Translations under genes and position numbers: made by a program
Shown: piece by piece, positions 833 through 31,168 of the stretch
Position numbering within the stretch: the stretch's first letter is position 1
How the letters are laid out: each line of letters begins with the position of its first letter
Source of the DNA: Nitrospirota bacterium
GTDB taxonomy: Bacteria > Nitrospirota > Thermodesulfovibrionia > UBA6902
Length of the DNA: 32,730 nucleotides
Reading direction: 5' to 3'
NCBI GenBank assembly: GCA_024277515.1
Contig: JAJRVB010000311.1
Location: forward strand, 1 to 32,730
Notes under the pieces: generated by a model
Databases searched by the model: none
Seen by the model: only the letters and a program-made list of their open reading frames with translations
Told to the model about the DNA's origin: nothing

Positions 833-922
833 TTATTGCCGCTTGAGTCCTGCGGGGAAACCTGTCCGGGAAGCTCTCAAAACTATCGTGTGAACAGACG
901 TTCTGTAAAGAAGGACTTTAGT

Positions 923-1675
923 ATGGATGACAAAGAGAGGGACCGGAACATGAGTGTGAAGACGGGAATCAGGAATTTTATTATGATGGGGGTCCTGCTC
1001 CTGCTTGCGGGATTCTGGCTGGGCAAGTCAAAAAACAGCGTCCCCGACATCAGAGAACTCGATTTTCCGAGCGCAACGGTATACGAGATCCCCGTCCCTC
1101 TTCCCCGCTTTTCACTGACTGATGACGGGGGACAGGAATTTAACGAATGGAATCTCTCCAGGAAGTGGACCTTCATGTTCTTTGGGTACACTTTTTGCCC
1201 TGATGTATGCCCTACGGCACTTGTTGACCTGAATGATGTATACAATAATCTTTTGGAAAAAGGGGACCTCATCGAGAAGAAATTCAAAGTCCCTACACAG
1301 TTTGTATTTGTGTCTGTTGATCCCGGGAGGGACACCCCGGAGGACCTGAAAGAGTACATGAATTATTTTAATGAGGAATTTATCGGGGTAACGGGTGCGT
1401 CCGGGATGATCGACAGACTGGCGAGGCCCATGGGTGCTGCGTACAGGCGTGTGCCGGGTACGGATGACGAGGGGGACTATTTCATTGACCACAGCGCATC
1501 TTTCCTTCTTATTGACCCGCTCGGCAGGCTGCGGGCTTCTTTCCCCCCTCCGCATGATCCGGGACAGATGGCTGATGACTTTCGTAATATCCGCAATGAA
1601 TTCACAGCTGAGTGCTGCCTGCCGTATCAGGATACCGAACAGGTCATTTTTGATTACAGAAAGGAGAAAAAATGA
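923..1675 (+). CDS. SCO1/SenC family copper chaperone (thioredoxin fold, membrane anchored)
   Basis: It has a CPDVCP (CxxxC) copper-binding motif, an N-terminal TM helix (FIMMGVLLLLAGFWLG) and a downstream DHS motif. The track ORF starts at TTG 836. ATG 923 or ATG 950 is a more plausible start. Confidence 0.8.
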   Translation: MDDKERDRNMSVKTGIRNFIMMGVLLLLAGFWLGKSKNSVPDIRELDFPSATVYEIPVPLPRFSLTDDGGQEFNEWNLSRKWTFMFFGYTFCPDVCPTALVDLNDVYNNLLEKGDLIEKKFKVPTQFVFVSVDPGRDTPEDLKEYMNYFNEEFIGVTGASGMIDRLARPMGAAYRRVPGTDDEGDYFIDHSASFLLIDPLGRLRASFPPPHDPGQMADDFRNIRNEFTAECCLPYQDTEQVIFDYRKEKK

Positions 1676-2130
1676 AAAAAATCCTGTTTTACATATCTGT
1701 TTTGCTTGTAAGTATCAGTGTTTCATCATCAGCAGCAGACTCAATCATGGTGCAGGATGCATGGGTGCGCTCAGCCCCTCCCAATGCAAAGGCCCTTGCA
1801 GCATATATGAAAATTATCAACACATCCGCTGAGCAGAGGGCGCTCATCAGTGCATCCAGCAGCCGGTTTGGCAGGGTGGAGATGCACAAATCCGAAATGC
1901 ATGAGGGGATTATGAAGATGATACCGCAAAAACAGCTGACGGTCCCGGCTGGAGGGTCATTATTGCTCAAGCCGATGAGTTATCATCTTATGCTGATGAA
2001 ACCGGTATCGGTCCCCCGGGAAGGGGACCTGGTGGATTTTGATCTGCGGTTTGACGATGGCACGGTATTACATCTCAGGGTCCCTGTCCGGGCAGCAAAA
2101 AGCGGGCGGATGATGAAAAGTCACGACTGA
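1672..2130 (+). CDS. periplasmic copper chaperone PCu(A)C (DUF461)
   Basis: It has a signal peptide and Met/His-rich Cu(I) motifs (MHKSEMHEGIMKM ... MSYHLMLM). Its start overlaps the Sco1 stop in an ATGA overlap, which implies translational coupling. Confidence 0.8.
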   Translation: MKKILFYISVLLVSISVSSSAADSIMVQDAWVRSAPPNAKALAAYMKIINTSAEQRALISASSSRFGRVEMHKSEMHEGIMKMIPQKQLTVPAGGSLLLKPMSYHLMLMKPVSVPREGDLVDFDLRFDDGTVLHLRVPVRAAKSGRMMKSHD

Positions 2131-3228: not shown

Positions 3229-3492
3229 CTATTTTGCCATCCGGTCAAGCGCCTCTGAAAGCTCGTCCTCGCAATACGAATATGCAAGGTTTGCATCGTA
3301 TACAAACGGCAGACCTTGTATCTGCTTCATTTTTTTCATCTGCTCCTCAATACTTTCGCCCTCTATGGTTACCACGATCTTTCCGTCGGCATCATTAAAA
3401 TGGACTTCACAGGAATCAACAGCGTTTATACTGTCGATGACTTCATGAAGATGCTCCGGTAATGTTTTAACAACGATGCTCGATACATTCAT
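3229..3492 (-). CDS. napD: NapD, Tat-signal-binding chaperone for NapA
   Basis: It is an 87-aa protein with the NapD pattern (IVV...VDSCEVHF...GKIVVTIEGES...I..I..LP.V....LAY). It is the last gene of the nap operon. Confidence 0.8.
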   Translation of the reverse strand: MNVSSIVVKTLPEHLHEVIDSINAVDSCEVHFNDADGKIVVTIEGESIEEQMKKMKQIQGLPFVYDANLAYSYCEDELSEALDRMAK

Positions 3493-3514
3493 AATGATAT
3501 TTCCTTTCCACTGA

Positions 3515-4069
3515 CTACTCTGTCTCTACCCCTTCGTTTAATATGTTAAGTAAATTTGAGCGGTACCGTCCCTGCTCATCCCTGAACTCACCCTTGAAGA
3601 TGTTTTCTACCGCAGGGGTCAGAATATTCTGGATAACATGACACTGCATACAGTTGAATCTGCTGCCGTCAAGTTTGCCCCTCAGGTATGCCCCGGTGTC
3701 CAGGTTAACAAGGTGGGACGTGGGTACCGGGGTCGCTCCGCTGAATACCGCTTCTTCAGGCATGTGGCATCCCATGCATATGTTGTCTTCCTCTATGGGA
3801 AGCATGCCGGTAATGTCATGTGCGATCAATGGAGGACTGTTTTCAAATGACCTCTCGAACCTGACACTTTCTCCCGGTTCTTTCTTTGTTGTCTCCCCGT
3901 GGGCGGGAACTGTCGTGCTCTCATCATAGAGTGTTTCGTGCCTGAGGCCGAGGTCCTCTTCGGAAAAGGTTTCTGTCCGGGTCTGGGGCTGGGCACACGA
4001 AAATAATATTCCTAAAGAGAGTGTCCCGGCCGTTAATAACAATAACCATGTCCTTCTGTTTCTTTCCAT
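3515..4069 (-). CDS. napB: NapB, dihaem cytochrome c subunit of periplasmic nitrate reductase
   Basis: It has a signal anchor, two CXXCH motifs (CMGCH, CMQCH) and the PPLIAH motif. The size and operon position fit NapB. Confidence 0.8.
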   Translation of the reverse strand: MERNRRTWLLLLTAGTLSLGILFSCAQPQTRTETFSEEDLGLRHETLYDESTTVPAHGETTKKEPGESVRFERSFENSPPLIAHDITGMLPIEEDNICMGCHMPEEAVFSGATPVPTSHLVNLDTGAYLRGKLDGSRFNCMQCHVIQNILTPAVENIFKGEFRDEQGRYRSNLLNILNEGVETE

Positions 4070-4072
4070 AAT

Positions 4073-4894
4073 TCATCCCTCCTTACATTTAGTATGAATT
4101 TTATTTGAATATATGTTTATGAAATTTACTGCGTCATCGTCACATACTTCAATGCATCTGCCGCAATTTACGCATTCTCCGGAGACCACGGCCCCGCTCT
4201 CCCTGCCTACCATATGCAGGACCTGTTTTTCAGGACAGATTTCTATGCATTTCATACATGAAGTACATTTTTCACGGTCATATCCTATCCGGAGAAAACC
4301 GAAACGGCCTATGATCGAGTAAAAGCCGCCGAGCGGACAGATGTGGCCGCAGAAGCCGTTTTTTACTGCAAACAGGTCGAACAGAAAAACCATGAGAACT
4401 AATGTCCAGCCAAAACCGAACCCGTATATAATCCCCCTGTGCAGGGCGCCGATCGGACTTATCCACTCAAAGGCCGCTACCCCGAGGATGACTGACAGTG
4501 CTACCGACAAGAAAATAATCCAGTAACGCGTCGCTCTTTTTATGTCCCACGACTTCCAGACGGAATCCAGACTGAAGAGTCTTCTGAGTCTGTTGGCAAG
4601 GTCTGTCACCATGTTTACCGGACATGCCCAGCTACAGAATACTCTCCCACCGAGGACAGCGTAAAAGAGCAGGATGACGAGCGCGCCTGTTACGGCATCG
4701 CTGGCAATGACGGCGCCTGCGGAAAAGCTTTGCAATACTGCAAAGGGGTCGGACAGCGGGATTGTATCGAAGACCCTCGCAGAACTAAGGTTTCCCCTCA
4801 GTACGCTCCAGCCGTATGCGTTTCCCCCGAAAAATACGAAAAGAATTCCTGTTTGCAGAAGCCTTCTCGGTATCTGGTATTTATATTTTCTCAT
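4073..4894 (-). CDS. napH: NapH, membrane quinol dehydrogenase ferredoxin subunit
   Basis: It has four predicted TM helices, CxxCP motifs (CSWACP, CGHICP) and two C-terminal 4Fe-4S motifs (CTSCMKCIEICP, CVNCGRCIEVC). Confidence 0.85.
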   Translation of the reverse strand: MRKYKYQIPRRLLQTGILFVFFGGNAYGWSVLRGNLSSARVFDTIPLSDPFAVLQSFSAGAVIASDAVTGALVILLFYAVLGGRVFCSWACPVNMVTDLANRLRRLFSLDSVWKSWDIKRATRYWIIFLSVALSVILGVAAFEWISPIGALHRGIIYGFGFGWTLVLMVFLFDLFAVKNGFCGHICPLGGFYSIIGRFGFLRIGYDREKCTSCMKCIEICPEKQVLHMVGRESGAVVSGECVNCGRCIEVCDDDAVNFINIYSNKIHTKCKEG

Positions 4895-4931
4895 ATCTAT
4901 CCTGCATGCAGGGGCAATTCATGAATTGCCC

Positions 4932-5714
4932 CTACAGTTCGTCATTCAGATAATCAAGGGCCTTCCGGCCGCTCCTGGGCGTCTGTGTAGTGACTTTTTC
5001 CGTTGCTTCCTTCATACGCTCTTCATCCTGTTCATCCCAGCCCTTTATATAGCGTTCGCTCGACTGACCCATCGCTATTTCCTTCGGCAGTACGAAAATT
5101 GATGCCTTCCGGGTAACACAGGCCCTTTCGCAGAGGCCGCATCCTGTACAGGCATCACTGTGAACAACGGGCGCCTGTATTGTATGTTTTCCTGTCCTGA
5201 CGTTTCTTGTGTATTCAACAGTGATCGCCTTGTCGATCAAAGGGCATGCACGGTAGCAGGCGTCACACTGAATACCTGCATATGCAATACAGATTTCCCG
5301 GTCAATGACGGCGATGCCCATTTTTGCCATGTTAATATTGAGCCTTAATTCACCATCTTCGCCTTTTTCACTGACGAGTGTTTTATCAAGGGATCCGGTG
5401 GGGCAGACTGGCACACAGGGAATGTCCCTGCACATATAACAGGGGTTTGTCCTCGGCGTGTAGTATGGGGTCCCTACCGGTTTGCTATCTCCCGGTTTTG
5501 CGAGGACCAGCGCGTCATAGGGACATGCCTCGACACACATCCCGCATTTTATGCAGGAGGCAAGAAAATCTTTTTCCGGCAATGCACCGGGTGGCCGCAA
5601 TATCAGCGGTGCGGACCTGCCTTCCTCTATAAAGCCGCTCCAGGCAAGTCCGCCTGTAGCAGCCAGCCCCAGGCTCTTGAAGGTCTTCAGCAGAAATTCT
5701 CTACGTTCAGGCAT
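4932..5714 (-). CDS. napG: NapG, Tat-exported poly-ferredoxin
   Basis: It has a twin-arginine signal (MPERREFLLKTFKSLGLAATGG) and four Cys clusters of 4Fe-4S type. A GAGGTGAGG Shine-Dalgarno precedes ATG 5714, so the longer track ORF (to 5804) is probably an over-extension. Confidence 0.85.
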   Translation of the reverse strand: MPERREFLLKTFKSLGLAATGGLAWSGFIEEGRSAPLILRPPGALPEKDFLASCIKCGMCVEACPYDALVLAKPGDSKPVGTPYYTPRTNPCYMCRDIPCVPVCPTGSLDKTLVSEKGEDGELRLNINMAKMGIAVIDREICIAYAGIQCDACYRACPLIDKAITVEYTRNVRTGKHTIQAPVVHSDACTGCGLCERACVTRKASIFVLPKEIAMGQSSERYIKGWDEQDEERMKEATEKVTTQTPRSGRKALDYLNDEL

Positions 5715-5825
5715 CCTCACCTCATTCTTTTGCGTTTTCTTTTCATGCATCTCAGTAACATTAACTTTATTCCTTAGCCATGTAGTTGGTAGATAGCAGC
5801 ACATAGTTAGGGGAAAAGTCCCATA

Positions 5826-5867
5826 CTACTTGCTACTGACTACTGTCTACTGACTTCTGTCTACTTC
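5826..5867 (-). repeat. six phased heptamers (plus strand CTACTNN; sense strand NNAGTAG) in the napA-napG spacer
   Basis: CTACT occurs at 5826, 5833, 5840, 5847 and 5861, with a degenerate CTTCT at 5854, giving a strict 7-nt period. The array begins 13 nt after the napA stop codon. Confidence 0.6.
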
Positions 5868-5879
5868 TTTTTTCCTTCC

Positions 5880-8654
5880 TCATGCTTTATAAACCTTTAC
5901 CGCGCATTTCTTGAAATCCGTCTCTTTTGACATGGGACATGTTGCATCAAGAGTTACTTTATTGATCAGGACACGTTCGTCAAACCAGGGTACGAAGATC
6001 AAACCTTTCGGAGGGCTGTTTCTCCCTCTGGTATTGATCCTTGACTTGACCTTTCCGCGCCTTGATTCTATCCATATCAGCTGGCCGTCTCTAAACCCGT
6101 TTGATTCCGCGTCGTTCGGGTGCATGAAGCATACAGCCTCCGGAGCTGCCCGGTAGAGTTCAGGCACGCGCATGGTCATCGTACCGCTGTGCCAGTGCTC
6201 CAGCACCCTCCCGGTACAGAGCCACAACGGATATTCACTGCTGGGTATTTCCGCAGCTTCGGCGTAATGTCTGAGGAATATCTTTGCCTTGTTCGGGAGC
6301 TTGAGTTTTTCCAGCTCCTTCCTGGGTCCCTTCAGGTCCCCCTGTGCTATGGCCTTCAATGCCTTGCCGTAAAAAGCGAACTGTCCGGTGTTTGCCTTTC
6401 GTGCATAAGGATCGTAGTCTGCATTAAATCTCCATGGGGTTTCCTTGCCGTTTACAACGGGCCATTTCAGACCCCTGACCTTATGGTAGGTGTCGAAATC
6501 CGCAAGATCATGTCCGTTGCCGATACCGAACTTCCTGTATTCTCCCCACAAATATTTCTGAATGAAAAAACCGTAGCCCTTGAAGCCCTCAACGTCCCTC
6601 TTGTCTCCGGCTGCTTCACTATTCAAAAATCCTTTTCCTACAGGGTCAGGCCATTTATATGATTTTGCCTCCTTGTTGGCGTACAGGACGTCATATAATG
6701 TGTCCGTGTCCTTATATCCCATTGCCCTTGCCTTGGCCATAACATCTGGAAGGGTAACCTTGTCATTGATCTTATGGGCCTTCCAGACTTCGGCCAGTGT
6801 AAACCTCTTCGAAAATTCCACGGTCTGCCAGGTGTCTGACATTGCTTTCCCGACAGGTGTGACCTGCTGTCTCCAGTGCTGGGTCCTGCGCTCGGCATTA
6901 CCATAGGCCCCCCATTTTTCGAATATCATGGCAGTGGGGAGGATCAGGTCCGCAACCTTTGCGGAAATCCCGGGATATACCTCTGACACCACGATAAAGT
7001 TGTCCATTTCCCTTGCCGCCTTGATCCAGTGGTTCATATTTGCCGTATTCTGCCAGGGATTGCATACCTGTACCCATGCCCACTTGATCTTTCCGTCTTC
7101 AAGGTCTCTCATTATTTTTGTATAGTGTGAGCCCACGACCGGATTGAGTGTGCCTTCAGGCAGTTTCCAGAGCTTTTCAGATTTTTTTCTGTGTTTTGGA
7201 TTGAATACGACCATATCCGACGGGAGTCTGTGCGCGAATGTCCCGACTTCCCTTGCTGTCCCGCACGCGCTCGGCTGGCCGGTGAGGCTGAACGGACTGT
7301 TGCCCGGCTGCGCAATCTTGCCGAGCAGGAGATGTACCATATACATCTGTTCATTGACCCATGAACCCCTCACATGCTGGTTAAATCCCATGGTCCAGAA
7401 ACTGCTCACCTTTCTGTCTTTGGCCACGTAGTATTCAACAAGTTTTTTCAGCTTGTCCTTAAACTCTGAGAGGGACTCGTCAGAGTCTCCCTTGGCAAGT
7501 TCAGCGACAAAATCCAGGGTGTAAGGCTCAAGCCCCTTTTTGAAATCATCAAAGCTGATCGCCCAGTGCTTGACCGGTTTCTTTGTATTTTTCATCCGGA
7601 GCGTGGAACCGGCCTTTATACCGAGGGAGCTCCATGCATGGGCTTCTTCTTTGGTTACTGTTTTGGATGCTTCCCTGGCTGCCGTATCGAGCTCGCCCGG
7701 TCTGTATTTTGGATGATCAATCCTGGAACGCATTCCATAACCAATATCTACAGGGCCTGTCGCGAATACACAGTACCTGTCAACGAAATCCTGGTCTATA
7801 GCTTCAGGCCGGTTGTATACTATTTCCCTGGCTATATAATTAAGGAGCGCGAGATCGGTGTTAGGTTTAATAATGATTTCAATGTCCGATATGTTGGAGC
7901 ATCTGTTTCTGAATGTGGATATATTGACCAGCTTTACCCAGTCCGGTCTGCTCAGTTTCCTGTCTGTAATTTTTGACCATAATACGGGATGCATCTCCGC
8001 CATATTGGCGCCCCAGAGGACGATTGAATCGGCAAAATGCATATCATCATAGTTGCCTGCAGGTTCATCTATGCCGAATGTCTGTATAAACCCTACCACA
8101 GCGCTTGCCATGCAGTGGCGGGCATTCGGATCAATATTATTGCTTCTGAACCCCCCCTTAACGAGTTTTACCGCGGCTACCCCTTCCTGGACTGTATATT
8201 GACCTGACCCGAAGACCGATATGCCTTTCGGTCCCAGTTCAGAGTAATACTTTTTGAACTGATTTGCCATTTCATCGAAGGCCCGTTCCCATGTGACCGG
8301 TCTGAATTTACCGTTTTTATCGAACTCACCCGCATCGTTTACCCTTAAAAGAGGATCGGTCAGCCTGTCTGCGCCGTACATGATCTTTGCATTAAAATAT
8401 CCCTTTATACAGTTTAACCCCATGTTTACGGGTGCAAGCGGATCACCTTTTACCGCAACGATCATATCATTTCTGGTTGCGATCATGATGCCGCATCCGG
8501 TACCGCAAAACCTGCATACCGCCTTGTCCCATCGCCAATCTGCCTGTGTCTCGGCTGCAACAGCCTTTAAATTATCCGGCACGGACAGTCCGATAGCTGT
8601 TGCGGCGCTTACTGCAGCCGTGGTTTTCAGAAAGTCCCTTCTTGACACTTTCAT
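5880..8654 (-). CDS. napA: NapA, periplasmic nitrate reductase catalytic subunit (Mo-bisMGD, 4Fe-4S)
   Basis: It has a Tat signal ([22 protein letters not shown]) and the N-terminal CRFCGTGC 4Fe-4S motif. The 924-aa long form is followed by napGHBD. A GGAGGG RBS precedes the ATG. Confidence 0.95.
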
Positions 8655-11961: not shown

Positions 11962-13422
11962 ATGAAAAAAATGATAACCCTGGCAATTGCCGCCTGTATC
12001 CTGGCACTGGGAACAAGCGCATATGCCATCACAAAGATCAACATCCCGAAAGACGTGTCAAAGACCAGCCAGGAATGCATTGAGTGCCACAAAGCGACAA
12101 CGGTCAACATTTACCAGCAATGGGGCAACAGTAAACATTTTCGCGCCAATGTCGGGTGTTATGAATGCCACGAGGCCAAGAAGGGCGAGTCGGATGCATT
12201 TGAACACGAAGGTAAATTCATTTCCATTATTGTATCTCCGAAGGATTGCGCAAGATGCCATGAGAGGGAAGTTGATGAATTTACCAATTCACATCATGCC
12301 AAGGCAGGAAGGATCATGGGATCTCTGGACAATATTCTTGCTGAGGTTGTCGAAGGCAACAGGGGCATGATAACAGAGGCTTTCCCCCGCGGTGTTTCTG
12401 CTGCTGCAGTCAACGGTTGCTGGCAGTGCCACGGCTCTGTTGTGAAAGTCAATAAAGACGGGAGGCTTGACCCGGCCACCTGGCCTAACACCGGTATGGG
12501 AAGGGTAAACCCCGACGGTTCGGAGGGTAGCTGTACAGCATGTCACCAGCGCCATGAATTCTCGGCTGCACAGGTCCGCCAGCCGGGGAACTGTGGTAAA
12601 TGCCATCAGGGGCCGGACCATCCACAATATGAGATATATAAACTTTCAAAGCATGGAATTAGCTATTTCGCCAACATGGATGATATGAACCTCGATTCTC
12701 CCAAATGGATTGTTGGAGAAGATTATTCTATAGCGCCTACATGTGCAACCTGCCATATGTCGGCTACCAGTGATATGCCTGTCACTCACAACGTGGGTCT
12801 GCGTATCAAGTGGAACAACCGTCCGCCGCGGATTAAACAGGCCCACGAGACGGATAAGAGGTGGGGACTGGCCTCCGCCAAAATTACAGGCGACATGCGT
12901 AAGGCAAACATGGTCAAGGTCTGTGTCAACTGTCACGGCGAAAAATTTGTGGAAGGCTTTTACATTCAGTATGAAGCCCAGCTGCAACTCTACGATAAGA
13001 AATGGGCAGAACCCGGCTTAAGGCTCTATAAAAAGGCTACAGAAGTTCTAAAGGCCATGCAGGGCAAAGAATACGCCAAGTTTTCCCAGAAGATTGACTA
13101 TACATGGTTTGAGCTCTGGCACCATGAGGGTCGAATTGTTCGCCATGCAGCATCCATGATGGGACCGGATTATACACAATGGGAGGGCAACTATATCTTA
13201 GCCAAAAACTGGTATAGCGAGTATATTCCGGAGTTAAAAGAAATCATCGAAGAGGCCAAGCACAGTAATCGTAAGGCCAAAAAGCTTGGAGGCGAATTAG
13301 AGAAGATGCTCACTGAGATTACGAATAATGACGATCACAAGTGGTCCATCGGTAAAGAAGATGCCGCAGTTAAAGCAGATCGTAAGAAACGCCAAAAAGA
13401 GTTTAAAGCTCGTTATAAATAG
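11962..13422 (+). CDS. octahaem cytochrome c, hydroxylamine oxidoreductase (HAO/epsilon-Hao-like) family
   Basis: It has a Sec signal peptide (ALGTSAYA) and eight CXXCH motifs (CIECH, CYECH, CARCH, CWQCH, CTACH, CGKCH, CATCH, CVNCH). The block GRVNPDGSEGSCTACHQRHEFS...CGKCHQGPDHPQYEIYKLSKHG and the WHHEG motif recall HAO-family proteins. A strong AAGGAGGGG RBS precedes the start. Confidence 0.65.
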   Translation: MKKMITLAIAACILALGTSAYAITKINIPKDVSKTSQECIECHKATTVNIYQQWGNSKHFRANVGCYECHEAKKGESDAFEHEGKFISIIVSPKDCARCHEREVDEFTNSHHAKAGRIMGSLDNILAEVVEGNRGMITEAFPRGVSAAAVNGCWQCHGSVVKVNKDGRLDPATWPNTGMGRVNPDGSEGSCTACHQRHEFSAAQVRQPGNCGKCHQGPDHPQYEIYKLSKHGISYFANMDDMNLDSPKWIVGEDYSIAPTCATCHMSATSDMPVTHNVGLRIKWNNRPPRIKQAHETDKRWGLASAKITGDMRKANMVKVCVNCHGEKFVEGFYIQYEAQLQLYDKKWAEPGLRLYKKATEVLKAMQGKEYAKFSQKIDYTWFELWHHEGRIVRHAASMMGPDYTQWEGNYILAKNWYSEYIPELKEIIEEAKHSNRKAKKLGGELEKMLTEITNNDDHKWSIGKEDAAVKADRKKRQKEFKARYK

Positions 13423-16257: not shown

Positions 16258-16509
16258 ATGAAGAGAAAAATATGTGCGATCGGCAACAGCAAAGGAATAT
16301 CAATCCCTGTTGATGTACTGGAGGAGCTTAATCTTGCTTTAGGGTCTGATGTAGACATCAAGCTGGATGACAAGCATTCACGCATAGTGATTGAACCGAT
16401 CAGGAAAGAGAGAAAATACCCCAAGGGAGTGGACCAGGAATTTGTTACACAGGTGAATGATTTTATAGAAAAATATGGACCTGCATTAAAAGAGATAGCA
16501 AAGAAGTGA
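16258..16509 (+). CDS. AbrB/MazE/SpoVT-type antitoxin (Phd-role partner of Doc)
   Basis: The N-terminus (AIGNSKGISIPVDVLEELNL..GSDVDI) has the swapped-hairpin AbrB pattern. Its stop overlaps the doc start in a GTGA overlap. Confidence 0.8.
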   Translation: MKRKICAIGNSKGISIPVDVLEELNLALGSDVDIKLDDKHSRIVIEPIRKERKYPKGVDQEFVTQVNDFIEKYGPALKEIAKK

Positions 16510-16889
16510 GGTATCTGTCAGCGGAACAGGTGCTGTTTATTCACAGCAGGCTCATAGACACGACCGGCGGATCACACGGTGTGAGGGACACAGGACTTTT
16601 GCAATCTGCTGTTGAAAGACCGAAATCAACATTTGAAGGCAAAGGTCTGTATCCGGATATATTTCACAAAGCTGCAGCGCTCATGGAATCCCTCACTAAC
16701 AATCATCCGTTTATTGACGGCAACAAAAGGACTGCCATAACAAGTTCCGCCCTGTTTCTCCGCTTCAATGGATTCTTTCTCAATACCTCACAGGAAAAAT
16801 TAGAGAAATTCGCGGTCCGGATGGCAACGGACAACGCATCATTTCAAGATGCTGTTGAATGGTTTAAGAAAAACTCGGATAAAATATAA
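16506..16889 (+). CDS. doc: Doc (death-on-curing) Fic-domain toxin
   Basis: It carries the Fic/Doc motif HPFIDGNKRTA. The N-terminus reads YLSAEQVLFIH, and the 127-aa size fits. Confidence 0.9.
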   Translation: MRYLSAEQVLFIHSRLIDTTGGSHGVRDTGLLQSAVERPKSTFEGKGLYPDIFHKAAALMESLTNNHPFIDGNKRTAITSSALFLRFNGFFLNTSQEKLEKFAVRMATDNASFQDAVEWFKKNSDKI

Positions 16890-17039: not shown

Positions 17040-17465
17040 TTATTTTACTGACGGGATACTAAACGGGCTGTTACCGTCGATATATGTCAGCTTCATCGTC
17101 TCTCTCTGAAATACTAAATCACTCACACCCCTGTTTTCAAGTGCCTGCTTATCTGAAAGGACCCACGAACACTTCCAGTTAAGGTTTACCTTCACCTCGG
17201 AGTCGGTGATCCTCACCATCCTGGGTGTGAATTCAAGCTCGGCAGTGCTGAACACAAGTCCATTGATAATATCTGCTGCAATATCAGCGTCAGTATGTGT
17301 CATGATGACGTCTTCATCTTTTCTTTCGTATGCATCTTTCAGCAGATCAATGATTCCGAAGACTTCGGAAGCTAATCGCGAGTCTTCTGAAGGTTTTATG
17401 TTATCTTCAGCGCAGCCTGTGAGCGATAAAGCAATGATCATCAGAATACAGGGAATATATTTCAT
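17040..17465 (-). CDS. lipoprotein, function unknown (141 aa)
   Basis: The lipobox in MKYIPCILMIIALSLTGC marks ATG 17465 as the start. The track's 194-aa version (to 17624) reads through the strong terminator at 17563-17602. Confidence 0.6.
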   Translation of the reverse strand: MKYIPCILMIIALSLTGCAEDNIKPSEDSRLASEVFGIIDLLKDAYERKDEDVIMTHTDADIAADIINGLVFSTAELEFTPRMVRITDSEVKVNLNWKCSWVLSDKQALENRGVSDLVFQRETMKLTYIDGNSPFSIPSVK

Positions 17466-17562: not shown

Positions 17563-17602
17563 AAAAAAAAGACCGTGCCGAACTGTTCGGCACGGTCTTT
17601 TA
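17563..17602 (-). terminator. intrinsic terminator after the cytochrome gene
   Basis: The stem is AAGACCGTGCCG...CGGCACGGTCTT. On the minus strand it is followed by a run of 8 U (the plus-strand A8 at 17563-17570). It begins 9 nt after the stop at 17611. Confidence 0.85.
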
Positions 17603-17610
17603 CGTTGAGT

Positions 17611-18936
17611 CTATTCTTTGACAAACTTTTTGGGAGGATTGAATGTAACGGTCTTCGTTACAGTCTTGATCGTTTCCCAATGGTCGGGCTCATTCTCAAA
17701 GAGGAATGTTGCTTCTATGGTGACCTCTTTTGTGTTATCGTCAACGAAAATGATGTGAGTTTCCTCATCCGTTTCTTCAGGCTCAAGGCCCAGGTTTACA
17801 TTCGTTGCAGCCGTGATGTCCCACTGTCTGAGCTCGACCCACTTGCCTCCTTCAAACCAGAGGTTCCAGTTGTCATACTTTCTTCTTTCCGTGTGTATTA
17901 CTTTTCCGTCCTGATCTTTGGCGGTCACTTCCAGTGCCGCTCTCGGTATGTATACTCAACCATTTGGCAGGCCGTGCCCTGAATGGCTGGTCATCTTGAC
18001 TTTCAGACAGAGCGTCGGGGTTAATTCATTCTTGTAGTTGTTGATAAACTGGGTGGATTCCGCCTCTATTTCGATTTCGAGCGCCTTTGCGAAAAAGTCC
18101 TTGTCATGCACTCCAGGGAAATAGTGTCCCCTCGGGTTGTCAGGATCATTGTCCTCACGGGGCATGTGGCAGTCCTGGCATCTCTTATCGCCGCCTTTCA
18201 ATATATAGTTCTCAACATAACTCGTGTACAGGGTTTTGCACTGCCAGAACGGCACACTGTCAGGACACCCATGGTGGCACCGTGCACACATATTGACGGA
18301 CGCGAGATAATCGGACTTGATCGTTTTGGTGATCGGCCCGATATTCATCTCCACATCGTGAACAGGATCTTCAGGGTCCTCGTCCCCCTTTGGGCCGTAG
18401 ATTGCAAGTTTTTCAGGCTTGTTACCCCAGTAACCGTCTTTTAACGCGAACATGTTATGGCAGCCATAACAGTTGAGGTTGAGTTTTGACAGCTCTTTTT
18501 TGGCTGCCTCTCTCTTTGGCTCTTCCGGGTCATCTACTGCTGTAATGATATAGTCAATAATCTCTGAAACAAGTTCATCCGTAGCGTATTTGATGTGAGG
18601 AGCGTGGCACCACAGACAATGGCTCTTGATCGCCATCTTGTCAAGATGATCTTCCTTCTCAAGACCCTGCTTGATAAATGTCCTCCAGGTCTGAAGCACA
18701 CGTTCGGTACTGAAGGCCCGGCCGTGCCCCGACCGGGTCCATTCTTCATAGATCTGCTCGTGGCAGTCGGCGCATACTTTGGTGTCGAATTTCTCTGCCA
18801 GCTCATCAAGAGAAGAAATCAGCGTTTCTCCGGGAACGGTCGGACCGTGAGCGCCGGGGGCAGCACCGGAAGCTGATACGGAGAGGGGAACAGCGGCGAC
18901 CGTGATGAGCAGCAGCATAGTGAATAAAAATCTCAT
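17611..18936 (-). CDS. pentahaem cytochrome c with in-frame TGA (17956-17958); candidate selenocysteine-containing protein of ~441 aa, or else a pseudogene or two-ORF arrangement
   Basis: It has a signal peptide and five CXXCH motifs (CADCH, CLWCH, CYGCH, CARCH, CQDCH). The 326-aa ORF and the 105-aa ORF are in the same frame, separated only by TGA plus 9 sense codons (VYIPRAALE). The downstream part has no ATG and no good RBS. A hairpin, GCGGCAC-UGGAA-GUG(A)CCGC, begins 16 nt after the UGA. Confidence 0.55.
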
Positions 18937-19269
18937 ACATTCCTCCTTTCATTTTATTTATGTTATACCTGCAGATTGTATATGTCTCGTTCGGAAACTT
19001 TCAAAGCAGGTGGCAATGTAAAGCTTTAAAAAATGAACCTGATTATAAATCAATGTATAAGCTCTCTGCAAGGCAATATTGATAATATTGAAATTAGAAA
19101 ACTTTATTTGCAACCAAATCACTCCCCTCAGGTTTGAGGAATTGAGGTCATGATTGATTTATGGTTATTTTTTCGTGTATGATTAAAAAACCAGCACGTT
19201 TCCATCGTGATAAAAAGGCTCTCGATAAATTGACTTTGTTTATTTTTTTGAGGTAGAATTACCTATCTT

Positions 19270-20181
19270 ATGGACGATCACAAGTTAAAGGTATTTTGTA
19301 TCGTTGCCGAAACGAAGAGTTTCTCAAGGGCATCAGAGATAATTCGTCTAACCCAACCTGCCGTCAGTCTCCAGATCCAGGCACTCGAAGAAATGTACGG
19401 GACCAAACTGTTCAATCGCTCCGGCTGCGTTATTACTCTCACAAAAGCAGGAGAAATGCTTTATAAGTATGCCAAGGAGATTAACGCGCTTTACGCTGCT
19501 GCGGAGAAGGAAATAGGAGGGGTAACCGGCCTTGTGAAGGGGGTCATATCAGTAGGCGCAAGTTCAACAATAGGCAACTATGTGCTCCCTACTGTGGTTG
19601 CCGATTTCAAGCGGAAGTATCCGAAAGTGGGGATCCATCTTCATGTCGGCAATACAAAGCAGGTGATCGACTACCTGAACGCGGGCAGTGTTGACGTGGG
19701 GCTGGTTGAAGGCGAGGTGAACAAGCAGAAGCTGCTTGTGGAGAAACTGATACCGGACGAAATGGTGCTCCTGATGTCTCCCTATCACCATCTGGCCAAG
19801 AAATCCACGATTTCGATCATGGAGCTTTCAAAGGAGCCGCTGATCTTTCGGGAGGAGGGTTCCGGCACCAGGCAGGCCATTGAAAAGTATCTTTCAAAAC
19901 ACGGCATTTCACAGCAGAATCTTAAAATATCATTGATCATGGGCAGTACCGAGGCGATCAAGAGTGCAGTTGAAGAGGGGCTGGGAACGTCAATACTATC
20001 GAGATGGACCGCGAAGAAGGAGTGTAAATACGGAACCCTCAAGTCTGCTGTGTTTAAAGAGGAAAAATTTGTGAGGGATTTTTCGCTCGTCTACAAGAAG
20101 TCCAAGGAACCGTCTCACACAATCGAGCAGTTCATGGGGTTCCTGAGGCGCTATCCATACAACAAGCTCCTGAACGCTTAA
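19270..20181 (+). CDS. LysR-family transcriptional regulator
   Basis: The N-terminal HTH reads FSRASEIIRLTQPAVSLQIQALEEMYGTKLFNR, followed by a periplasmic-binding-protein-like effector domain. It is divergent from the cytochrome gene. Confidence 0.9.
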   Translation: MDDHKLKVFCIVAETKSFSRASEIIRLTQPAVSLQIQALEEMYGTKLFNRSGCVITLTKAGEMLYKYAKEINALYAAAEKEIGGVTGLVKGVISVGASSTIGNYVLPTVVADFKRKYPKVGIHLHVGNTKQVIDYLNAGSVDVGLVEGEVNKQKLLVEKLIPDEMVLLMSPYHHLAKKSTISIMELSKEPLIFREEGSGTRQAIEKYLSKHGISQQNLKISLIMGSTEAIKSAVEEGLGTSILSRWTAKKECKYGTLKSAVFKEEKFVRDFSLVYKKSKEPSHTIEQFMGFLRRYPYNKLLNA

Positions 20182-28119: not shown

Positions 28120-28386
28120 TCAATTTATCAGTTTATTATAGTCTTCGTGGCTGCCGATCCAAAACCAAAGCAACCCACCGAGAACCTCAACGGCAACTGC
28201 ACGGTAATGCAAGCCAACTCGAACAGACCAATAGCAACCAGCCTTCTTCATGTGTAGCGAGGGATGACGAGGGTTATTTTTTAACAACGAGAAAGTTTTG
28301 TCTGCAAGGTCTTTAACAGAATGCGGTAGTGTCCTATAGAGTTTCCAAAACTCTGGCGAGGTAAAATGCTTCAAATTTCGGAGCAC
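28120..28386 (-). CDS. RelE/ParE-superfamily type II toxin
   Basis: FWKLY..L....K.LADKTF.LLK.NP.HPSLH.KK....WSVRV...YRAV......WFWIGSHEDYNKL matches the pattern of this toxin family. It overlaps the upstream antitoxin by 16 nt. Confidence 0.75.
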   Translation of the reverse strand: MLRNLKHFTSPEFWKLYRTLPHSVKDLADKTFSLLKNNPRHPSLHMKKAGCYWSVRVGLHYRAVAVEVLGGLLWFWIGSHEDYNKLIN

Positions 28387-30838: not shown

Positions 30839-31168
30839 TTATTTGCTTAACTTGGCACTAGCAAGACGGTTTAAACTTACTCCTGCTTCTGCCGCCTGGA
30901 TTGCAAGTTTTCTGTGTGCTTCAGGTGGAACTCGTACCATAAACTTTCCGCTGTAATTTCTATTAGCAATCGGCTCAGGTATTGTCTCCCCACTTTTTAC
31001 CATATCGCTTACCACCTCAGCAACGACTTTCCGAATGCCTTTCAATGCTCCTTCAGGTGTTTTCGTCAACCAGCTCAAACTTGGGAACTCAACACATAAT
31101 CCTACATATTCTTTATCTTCTTCAGACCAAGTAACACGATAAGTATAATGATCATTTTTCAGTGCCAT
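30839..31168 (-). CDS. hicB: HicB-family antitoxin with C-terminal ribbon-helix-helix
   Basis: The N-terminus is YTYRVTWSEEDKEYVGLCVEFPSLSW and the C-terminus is SGKFMVRVPPEAHRKLAIQAAEAGVSLNRL. Confidence 0.8.
   Translation of the reverse strand: MALKNDHYTYRVTWSEEDKEYVGLCVEFPSLSWLTKTPEGALKGIRKVVAEVVSDMVKSGETIPEPIANRNYSGKFMVRVPPEAHRKLAIQAAEAGVSLNRLASAKLSK

Follow-up and report, generated by a model that had tools for sequence, protein, structure and literature searches.

A probable selenocysteine-containing pentahaem cytochrome of the MccSep/ExtKL family in an uncultured Nitrospirota lineage

Organisation of the Locus

A contig assigned to the Nitrospirota (class Thermodesulfovibrionia, UBA6902; GenBank assembly GCA_024277515.1, contig JAJRVB010000311.1) carries a pentahaem cytochrome gene that is interrupted by an in-frame UGA codon. 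The 32,730 nucleotides analysed, referred to here as the window, contain this gene on the minus strand at 17611..18936, and we conclude that it is very probably a single gene encoding a periplasmic selenoprotein, a c-type cytochrome with five haems that belongs to the MccSep/ExtKL family. The gene is complete and comprises 441 codons, one of which is the UGA (17956..17958, motif GHGLPNG-U-VY) that would encode selenocysteine (Sec) 327, followed by the stop codon TAG at 17613-17611. Its first open reading frame (ORF), 18936..17956, encodes 326 amino acids whose last residues before the TGA are SGHGLPNG. Past the TGA, the same frame continues for 114 sense codons, beginning VYIPRAALEVTAKDQDGK and containing no Met codon, up to the TAG. 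A nominal GTG start within this segment opens a 105-aa ORF (17611..17928) and falls inside a hairpin that follows the UGA. The initial annotation, made from the sequence alone, had drawn attention to the 326-aa ORF with its five CXXCH motifs and terminal TGA, to the Met-free frame left open through VYIPRAALE into the 105-aa ORF, to a hairpin GCGGCAC-UGGAA-GUG(A)CCGC at 17940-17921, and to a strong terminator after the gene. Each of these observations holds when the sequence is rechecked, and the hairpin, correctly placed, is drawn by RNAfold with eight pairs and one bulged A.

The expression signals and haem-binding motifs of the gene, all on the minus strand, are readily located. A Shine-Dalgarno sequence GGAGG (18942..18946) lies 5 nt 5' of the ATG at 18936, within a stretch, AAAGGAGG, that is unchanged across five related loci. 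The first codons (18868..18936) encode a probable signal peptide of the Sec secretion type, read from the sequence by eye as MRFLFTMLLLITVAAVPLSVSA/S(G), with no lipobox Cys, and the product is predicted to be a soluble periplasmic protein. The five CXXCH motifs begin at C55, C107, C156, C217, and C253 and are all invariant in the homologue alignment. They comprise haem 1 (C55-A-D-C58-H59, 18760..18774; invariant in 75/75 sequences), haem 2, the active-site haem (C107-L-W-C110-H111, 18604..18618), haem 3 (C156-Y-G-C159-H160, 18457..18471), haem 4 (C217-A-R-C220-H221, 18274..18288), and haem 5 (C253-Q-D-C256-H257, 18166..18180), those of haems 3 and 5 being identified from the sequence together with the homologue alignment. 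The haem 4 motif is followed directly by H222-G-C224, and H222 and C224 are restricted to the clade of the window protein. The codon of Cys233 lies at 18238..18240. An intrinsic terminator with 16 pairs, 8 of them G-C, and a T-run occupies 17567..17601, starting 10 nt past the TAG.

TGA is also an ordinary stop codon in the window, where it ends 9 of 27 confidently assigned genes, which argues for site-specific recoding at this position and rules out an altered genetic code in which UGA is a sense codon. The window was also inspected for other gene pairs separated by an in-frame TGA; the only two, nagA/SCO1 and napH/napB, are ordinary neighbours that share a frame.

Assignment to the MccSep/ExtKL Family

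For family searches, the TGA was read as Cys in the joined 441-residue query. The protein belongs to the family described by NCBIfam model NF040886, 'multiheme c-type cytochrome (seleno)protein ExtKL', which it matches with 291.7 bits against a curated equivalog cut-off of 250. This match spans residues 12-432, corresponding to profile positions 11-422 of 423 (411 positions), and at model level no difference separates the window protein from the family, while Pfam returned generic multihaem domains only. Among PDB sequences, phmmer matched the joined protein to MccSep (9wt8/9wt9) with an E value of 1e-36 over residues 14-354, an alignment that crosses the TGA, and a profile built from the homologues reached 2e-60 against the same chains. 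The UGA codon aligns with U325 of 9wt8; in the alignment to the U325A mutant chain 9wt9, SGHGLPNG[C]VYIPRAALEV is paired with AGHSIPDG[A]PTPNRLVLSV. The nearest relatives in the Genome Taxonomy Database (GTDB), loci L001 and L002, encode proteins 70.9% and 71.3% identical to the window protein, and the nearest cluster in the protein database shows 87% identity across the N-terminal part; the exact window sequence is not on record.

The characterised member of this family is MccSep of Geobacter sulfurreducens PCA, which is the same protein as ExtKL (GSU2937-2936; PDB 9wt8-9wtc; Mihara et al., Sci Adv 2026; PMC13510729). It is a single 49-kDa periplasmic chain with five haems, 0.96 Se per subunit, and a cleaved signal peptide of 25 residues; its Sec peptide was detected by mass spectrometry and the chain was seen with an antibody against the downstream part (PMC13510729). 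The enzyme is a homotetramer in which haem 2 is ligated by His122 and Cys239, and the crystal structure shows a C-terminal immunoglobulin (Ig)-like beta-sandwich 'stem' that supplies the catalytic Sec (PMC13510729). Geobacter MccSep reduces polysulfide and, less well, selenite, and is required for S0 respiration; U325 and C239 are essential, and K372 makes a water-mediated contact to selenium such that the K372A substitution strongly lowers Vmax (PMC13510729). A survey of 637 homologues distinguished five clades, mainly from Desulfobacterota and Nitrospirota (Thermodesulfovibrionia), and treated them as one family of sulfur-reducing or -disproportionating taxa (PMC13510729). The window protein and Geobacter MccSep have in common five CXXCH motifs followed by a C-terminal domain with one Sec in GHxxPxG-U, the haem-2 His/Cys ligands, R83/R79, and an N-terminal signal peptide (a probable one in the window), and both genes show the order UGA, hairpin, and about 115-125 open codons.

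A selenoprotein prediction for ExtKL predates 2018 (PMC5877670), and the NF040886 family is listed among prokaryotic selenoproteins in a 2026 selenoproteome review (PMC13188914). The expectation of the initial annotation that this would be an unusual selenoprotein is thus not borne out. The MccSep/ExtKL family has already been modelled, reviewed, crystallised, and functionally assigned, and the window gene is an additional member from an uncultured Nitrospirota lineage. Other parts of that annotation fared better. The block GH-x-x-P-x-G...LEV...D..G that it described as spanning the stop is real and appears in the homologue alignments as GHxxPxG[U/C]....LEVT..KD.DG. Its suggestion that the stop lies inside a domain, and not between genes, is supported by the alignment to 9wt8/9wt9 across the site and by the homologues described in the following section, in which Cys-containing forms are single chains and the frame past the TGA is nearly always open.

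A Conserved Selenocysteine/Cysteine Column at the UGA Codon

A protein search returned 96 homologues, about 80 of which are 292-336 residues long and cover only 74% of the query because they end at the Gly just before the TGA column. Ten full-length homologues (388-427 aa) are single polypeptides that are 38-42% identical to the joined protein over 96-98% of its length. All ten carry Cys at the TGA column, within GHxxPxG-C, and the segment following the UGA in the window (17614..17955, 114 residues) aligns with their C-termini. Cys-type homologues from Nitrospirota metagenome-assembled genomes (MAGs; e.g., P0052 and P0057, and loci L007 and L008) have the WD[IV]T and CHH motifs in common with the window clade.

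At the genomic level, a scan of one genome per GTDB species yielded 80 loci. The codon aligned with the window UGA is TGA in 71 of them, drawn from Nitrospirota, Thermodesulfobacteriota, Desulfobulbaceae, Geobacter, Rokubacteria, and others. It is TGC or TGT in six (Cys-type) and GAT in two, both distant relatives, and the remaining locus gave no usable alignment at this codon. In 70 of the 71 TGA loci, the frame stays open for 100-135 codons past the TGA. Complete genes number 69 among these, each with five CXXCH motifs, and two loci hold gene fragments. The TGA and an identical hairpin core recur in each of L001-L004, the four loci most closely related to the window (61-71% identity, from tblastn or full-length alignment). 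Together, the Sec/Cys column and the intact downstream frame form a pattern across loci that is incompatible with a nonsense mutation, a sequencing error, or a pair of independent genes.

Two individual loci merit separate mention. The Sec-type locus L009 (7076-7160) has a disrupted 3' hairpin arm (GACAAG) and a stop 28 codons past the UGA, which probably points to an indel, a fault in the assembly, or decay of the copy. A Desulfobulbaceae MAG (L035) carries a tRNA-SeC at 811-908, about 10 kb upstream of its MccSep homologue. Among the 60 loci scanned, Sec machinery came into view in this one alone.

A Covarying Hairpin Follows the UGA Codon

Bacterial Sec insertion sequence (SECIS) elements, such as that of Escherichia coli fdhF, are hairpins within the coding sequence just 3' of the UGA. 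They carry a G in an apical loop that is suitably spaced from the UGA, and their stem has one bulged base. Numbering from the U of the UGA as +1, the window contains a SECIS-type hairpin, GCGGCACU-GGA-AGUG(A)CCGC, at +19..+38 (17921..17940, minus strand). RNAfold gives it eight pairs, the bulged A, and a free energy of about -10 kcal/mol, and its apical loop includes the conserved G27 and G28. The coding-sequence location, the conserved loop G, and the single bulged stem base are shared with the fdhF element. The fdhF stem follows the UGA immediately and has the loop GGUC, whereas the window stem begins 15 nt after the UGA and has the loop UGGAA/GGA.

Comparison over 72 Sec sequences (the window and the 71 TGA loci) shows that this hairpin is conserved and covaries. 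The consensus is GUGGUC-CUGGAAGU-GACCGC, with loop positions conserved at 100% (U26), 99% (G27), 82% (G28), and 90% (A29), and third-codon positions carry 1.26 bits of information within the hairpin as compared to 0.30 bits outside it. Of the cells in the six-pair stem, 86% are paired, and compensatory changes occur at four of the six pairs, including G21:C36 to A:U and C:G, G22:C35 to A:U, and C24:G33 to G:C and U:A. None of 500 shuffles matched the observed values, and registers slid along the sequence scored far lower. The hairpin is in register in most Sec loci. Its conserved sequence is kept in none of the six Cys-type loci, in which the peptide is also different (RMHMDVS or KIVMNLT, as compared to AALEVTA in the window), suggesting that a constraint on the RNA accounts, at least in part, for the conservation of 'VLEVT' among Sec forms. 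With a stem-loop shortly 3' of the UGA that is conserved in Sec-type genes and whose sequence is lost in Cys-type genes, the predicted hairpin has the traits of a SECIS element.

Two kinds of variation were observed around this consensus. In the window and in six related loci (L001-L005 and L016), GCGGCA replaces GUGGUC, so that two pairs of the consensus register are lost, C23-G33 and A24-U32 are gained, and the bulge moves from U32 to A34, with eight pairs remaining. Six loci of the Geobacter/Desulfuromonas type (L053, L059, L062, L067, L069, and L074) do not have the +19..+38 hairpin and instead have another stem that begins at the UGA itself (ACCGAC...GUCGGU, inner AACC/GGUU). The family thus has at least two SECIS architectures. 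The published family survey folded the UGA plus 30 nt only (PMC13510729), a length at which the 3' arm of the +19..+38 stem would be cut off.

Active-Site Residues and the C-Terminal Domain

To compare active-site residues, 78 read-through translations were aligned with MAFFT, 75 of which could be scored, and the window protein was aligned to the PDB chain with phmmer. Both haem-2 ligands of the Geobacter enzyme are conserved throughout. Its proximal ligand H122 corresponds to H111 and its distal ligand C239 to C233, each present in 75/75 sequences, a correspondence that is drawn at the level of sequence. U325 corresponds to U327, where all 75 sequences have Sec or Cys, while R83 corresponds to R79 and is present in 49/75. 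The non-essential C240 corresponds to K234 in a variable column. A His/Cys-ligated haem is also used for sulfur chemistry by TsdA and SoxAX (PMC13510729). Those enzymes are unrelated to the window protein in sequence, have no Sec, and oxidise thiosulfate rather than reduce polysulfide.

The column of K372 divides the family into three types, with K in 47 loci ('GUP'), Q in 17 ('GULW'), and D in 11 ('WD[IV]T'), and each type has its own residues beside the Sec. The D-type comprises the window and 10 related loci, and every one belongs to the Nitrospirota group that contains the window and its Cys-type relatives. The equivalence of residues at K372 is itself uncertain, because the hidden Markov model (HMM) and phmmer alignments fade near residue 354 or so.

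By homology, the 114 residues after the UGA would be expected to form the Ig-like beta-sandwich 'stem' that bears the Sec loop. An AlphaFold2 (AF2) model of these residues, built with the Cys-type homologues as alignment, contains four long beta strands and has predicted local distance difference test (pLDDT) values of 75-91 at both ends, with the middle 30 residues unmodelled. The model is consistent with the MccSep stem without proving it.

The Divergent LysR Gene and the Upstream Region

The window gene is flanked by genes for a LysR regulator, an aspartate ammonia-lyase (AspA), a small lipoprotein, a tRNA-Leu, and a Doc/MazE pair. It stands alone with its own terminator beside the LysR gene, whereas the Geobacter gene lies within extHIJKLMNOPQS, a cluster that also encodes a rhodanese-like protein (ExtH), a porin (ExtI), ExtJ, and the multihaem cytochromes ExtM/N (PMC5877670). 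The divergent LysR gene (19270..20181, plus strand) matches NF040786, 'selenium metabolism-associated', with 282.7 bits against a cut-off of 250. It occupies the same position in four related loci (L001, L002, L009, and L016), where it is 90-96% identical; in the same loci, MccSep is about 40-71% identical, AspA 78-81%, and a GGDEF protein 66-70%. A promoter-like site, TTGACT-18-TAGAAT (19230-19259, plus strand), ends 10 nt before the LysR ATG, such that the LysR mRNA may be nearly leaderless.

Alignment of the five intergenic regions revealed a conserved block upstream of the window gene (19042..19090, minus strand). It consists of a perfect 17-bp palindrome, CAATATT-ATC-AATATTG (19090-19074), followed by TTGCAG (19071-19066), an 18-nt spacer, and TATAAT (19047-19042). 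The block is common to the window and the same four loci, in two of which MccSep is only about 40% identical. We regard it as a candidate LysR operator joined to a candidate mccsep promoter.

Proposed Mechanism and Alternative Explanations

From these observations, together with the biochemistry of the Geobacter enzyme, a working model for the window gene can be outlined. The divergent, selenium-associated LysR protein probably controls expression through the palindrome upstream of the promoter, giving a monocistronic transcript that would end at the terminator (17601-17567). If the gene behaves like other bacterial selenoprotein genes, the hairpin that starts 15 nt past the UGA in the mRNA would recruit SelB-GTP-Sec-tRNA(Sec), and translation would run on through the presumed beta-sandwich domain of 114 residues as far as the TAG (17613-17611). 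Insertion of Sec in this organism and a tetrameric assembly would both follow from the family. The mature periplasmic protein would have a mass of about 46-48 kDa. The chain of haems would carry electrons to haem 2, for which His111 and Cys233 are the predicted ligands after the homologous Geobacter enzyme. Sec327, placed on a loop of the C-terminal domain beside the ligating Cys, would attack the chalcogen substrate, forming a Se-(S)n-S bridge to Cys233 that the haems could then reduce with release of sulfide. On this model the enzyme would most likely reduce polysulfide, serving sulfur respiration or disproportionation in its host, a Thermodesulfovibrionia-like member of the Nitrospirota. 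For the D-type clade as such, we lean towards polysulfide as the physiological substrate on the strength of the Geobacter analogy, with selenite as a secondary possibility.

Several observations weigh against assigning the window gene to this family as a selenoprotein gene with the activity of the Geobacter enzyme. Identity to the Geobacter-type enzyme is about 26% over the full length, and two sites near the selenium differ. The Sec loop reads N325-G-U-V328 as compared to the mobile loop D323-G-U-P326 of the Geobacter protein, and the column of the catalytic K372 is occupied by Asp373, within an invariant W-D-[IV]-T, in a region where the alignment is uncertain. The hairpin, taken alone, is thermodynamically unremarkable. 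Compared with dinucleotide shuffles, a 70-nt stretch containing it has z = -0.69, and 49 of the 200 shuffled sequences gave an equal or better fold, so its significance lies only in the comparison with relatives. A gathering-threshold Rfam scan of the whole window returned only a tRNA-Leu, and a scan of 17860-17990 at E <= 10 was empty, which speaks neither for nor against a SECIS element. The AF2 model has a mean pLDDT of only 65, and a Foldseek search of the PDB found only insignificant Ig-like or fibronectin type III (FnIII)-like matches (E > 0.01); the library searched ends in April 2026, before 9wt8, and we do not count this result against the domain model. Finally, no rhodanese (ExtH), porin (ExtI), or ExtM/N-type cytochrome gene of the ext cluster flanks the window gene, and no selA, selB, selD, or tRNA-Sec gene was found in the 32.7-kb window.

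If translation ended at the UGA, the gene would give a pentahaem cytochrome of 326 aa and, from the GTG at 17928, a second protein of 105 aa, as ExtK and ExtL were first annotated. Gene callers split nearly all homologues in this way, and TGA is a normal stop in the window. Some termination at UGA is in any case probable in bacterial Sec decoding when selenium is limiting. As a full account of the gene, however, separate products are very improbable, since the Cys-type homologues are single polypeptides, the downstream part is Met-free, and the GTG lies inside the conserved hairpin. The Geobacter product, moreover, is one 49-kDa chain with its Sec peptide seen in mass spectrometry, and in the crystal structure the C-terminal domain supplies the catalytic Sec (PMC13510729). 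The TGA could also have arisen from a Cys codon (TGC/TGT) by a single-base change, either as a recent nonsense mutation in what is now a pseudogene or as an error of sequencing or assembly, and Cys-type relatives do exist. This explanation is still more improbable, given that 71 of 80 independent assemblies, spread over several phyla, have TGA at this codon, that 70 of those 71 keep the frame after it intact, that the covarying hairpin is present in most Sec loci and kept in none of six Cys loci, and that L001-L004 all combine the TGA with an identical hairpin core. Based on the Cys/TGA column, the number of TGA loci, and the intact frames, we reject the pseudogene, sequencing-error, and two-protein explanations.

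A different question is whether the D-type loci form a Nitrospirota-specific subfamily that is functionally distinct from the Geobacter enzyme, acting on another substrate (e.g., selenite or another chalcogen) or in an oxidative or disproportionating direction, and induced by selenium, or by a selenium/sulfur signal, through LysR and the 17-bp palindrome. Such a subfamily would be marked by Asp in place of Lys372, a Sec loop of the form N/H-G-U-V/A, CHHGC after haem 4 (the H222 and C224 of the window protein, which along with the N-G-U-V loop and the Asp set it apart from Geobacter MccSep), and a re-registered SECIS stem. In its favour, the K, Q, and D classes (47/17/11) track clades, with D found only in the Nitrospirota group of the window. 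The strong loss of Vmax in K372A and the ability of the Geobacter enzyme to reduce selenite are compatible with it (PMC13510729), as is a neighbouring LysR gene associated with selenium metabolism that stays 90-96% identical where MccSep is only 40-71% identical. Nevertheless, the alignment around K372 is unreliable, the HMM and phmmer alignments ending near 354, and the core pair of Sec and haem-ligating Cys is conserved, as is R83. The published survey also holds the five clades together as one family of sulfur taxa (PMC13510729). We therefore consider a functionally distinct subfamily unlikely, though it deserves more weight than the explanations rejected above, and we prefer to interpret the window protein as a selenoprotein with the chemistry of its Geobacter relative.

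Interpreted in this way, the gene should be annotated as one selenoprotein gene, rather than as a truncated cytochrome and a small hypothetical protein, and the same consideration applies to most members of the MccSep/ExtKL family, which gene callers wrongly split. The basic picture of the family set in 2026 is unchanged by the results from the window. What the comparison adds is a covariation-backed SECIS core (+19..+38) for most of the family, a division into K, Q, and D active-site types that could guide enzymology, and the identification of a candidate selenium-linked LysR regulator with its candidate operator.

Other Genes of the Window

Downstream of the terminator, a gene at 17040..17465 (minus strand) encodes a 141-aa lipoprotein, MKYIPCILMIIALSLTGC..., with the lipobox LTGC, no Pfam or NCBIfam match, and a promoter-like site at 17530-17501. 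A 194-aa ORF listed for this protein, with a TTG start, overlaps the terminator and was rejected as an over-extension. The lipoprotein and tRNA-Leu(CAG) genes are syntenic downstream of the MccSep gene in L001, L002, and L009.

Genes related to respiration are found elsewhere in the window. A complete periplasmic nitrate reductase operon, napA-napG-napH-napB-napD, lies at 3229-8654 (minus strand) and implies nitrate respiration in an organism with a putative sulfur enzyme. The organism that carries this operon is a probable selenium-dependent reducer of polysulfide or elemental sulfur, or a disproportionator. A second multihaem cytochrome of 486 aa (11962-13422, plus strand) contains PF13447, bears a weak likeness to hydrazine dehydrogenase and DmsE-type models, and has a syntenic counterpart in L002 with 77% identity. 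A role as redox partner is conceivable, but nothing ties this cytochrome to the selenoprotein. SCO1/SenC and PCu(A)C copper chaperone genes follow nagA at 836-2130 (plus strand), with nagA and SCO1 sharing a frame across a TGA. The window also contains a histidine kinase and response regulator pair, as well as several toxin-antitoxin modules (MazE-like with Doc, a ParE-like toxin, and HicB) at 16258-16889, 28120-28386, and 30839-31168.

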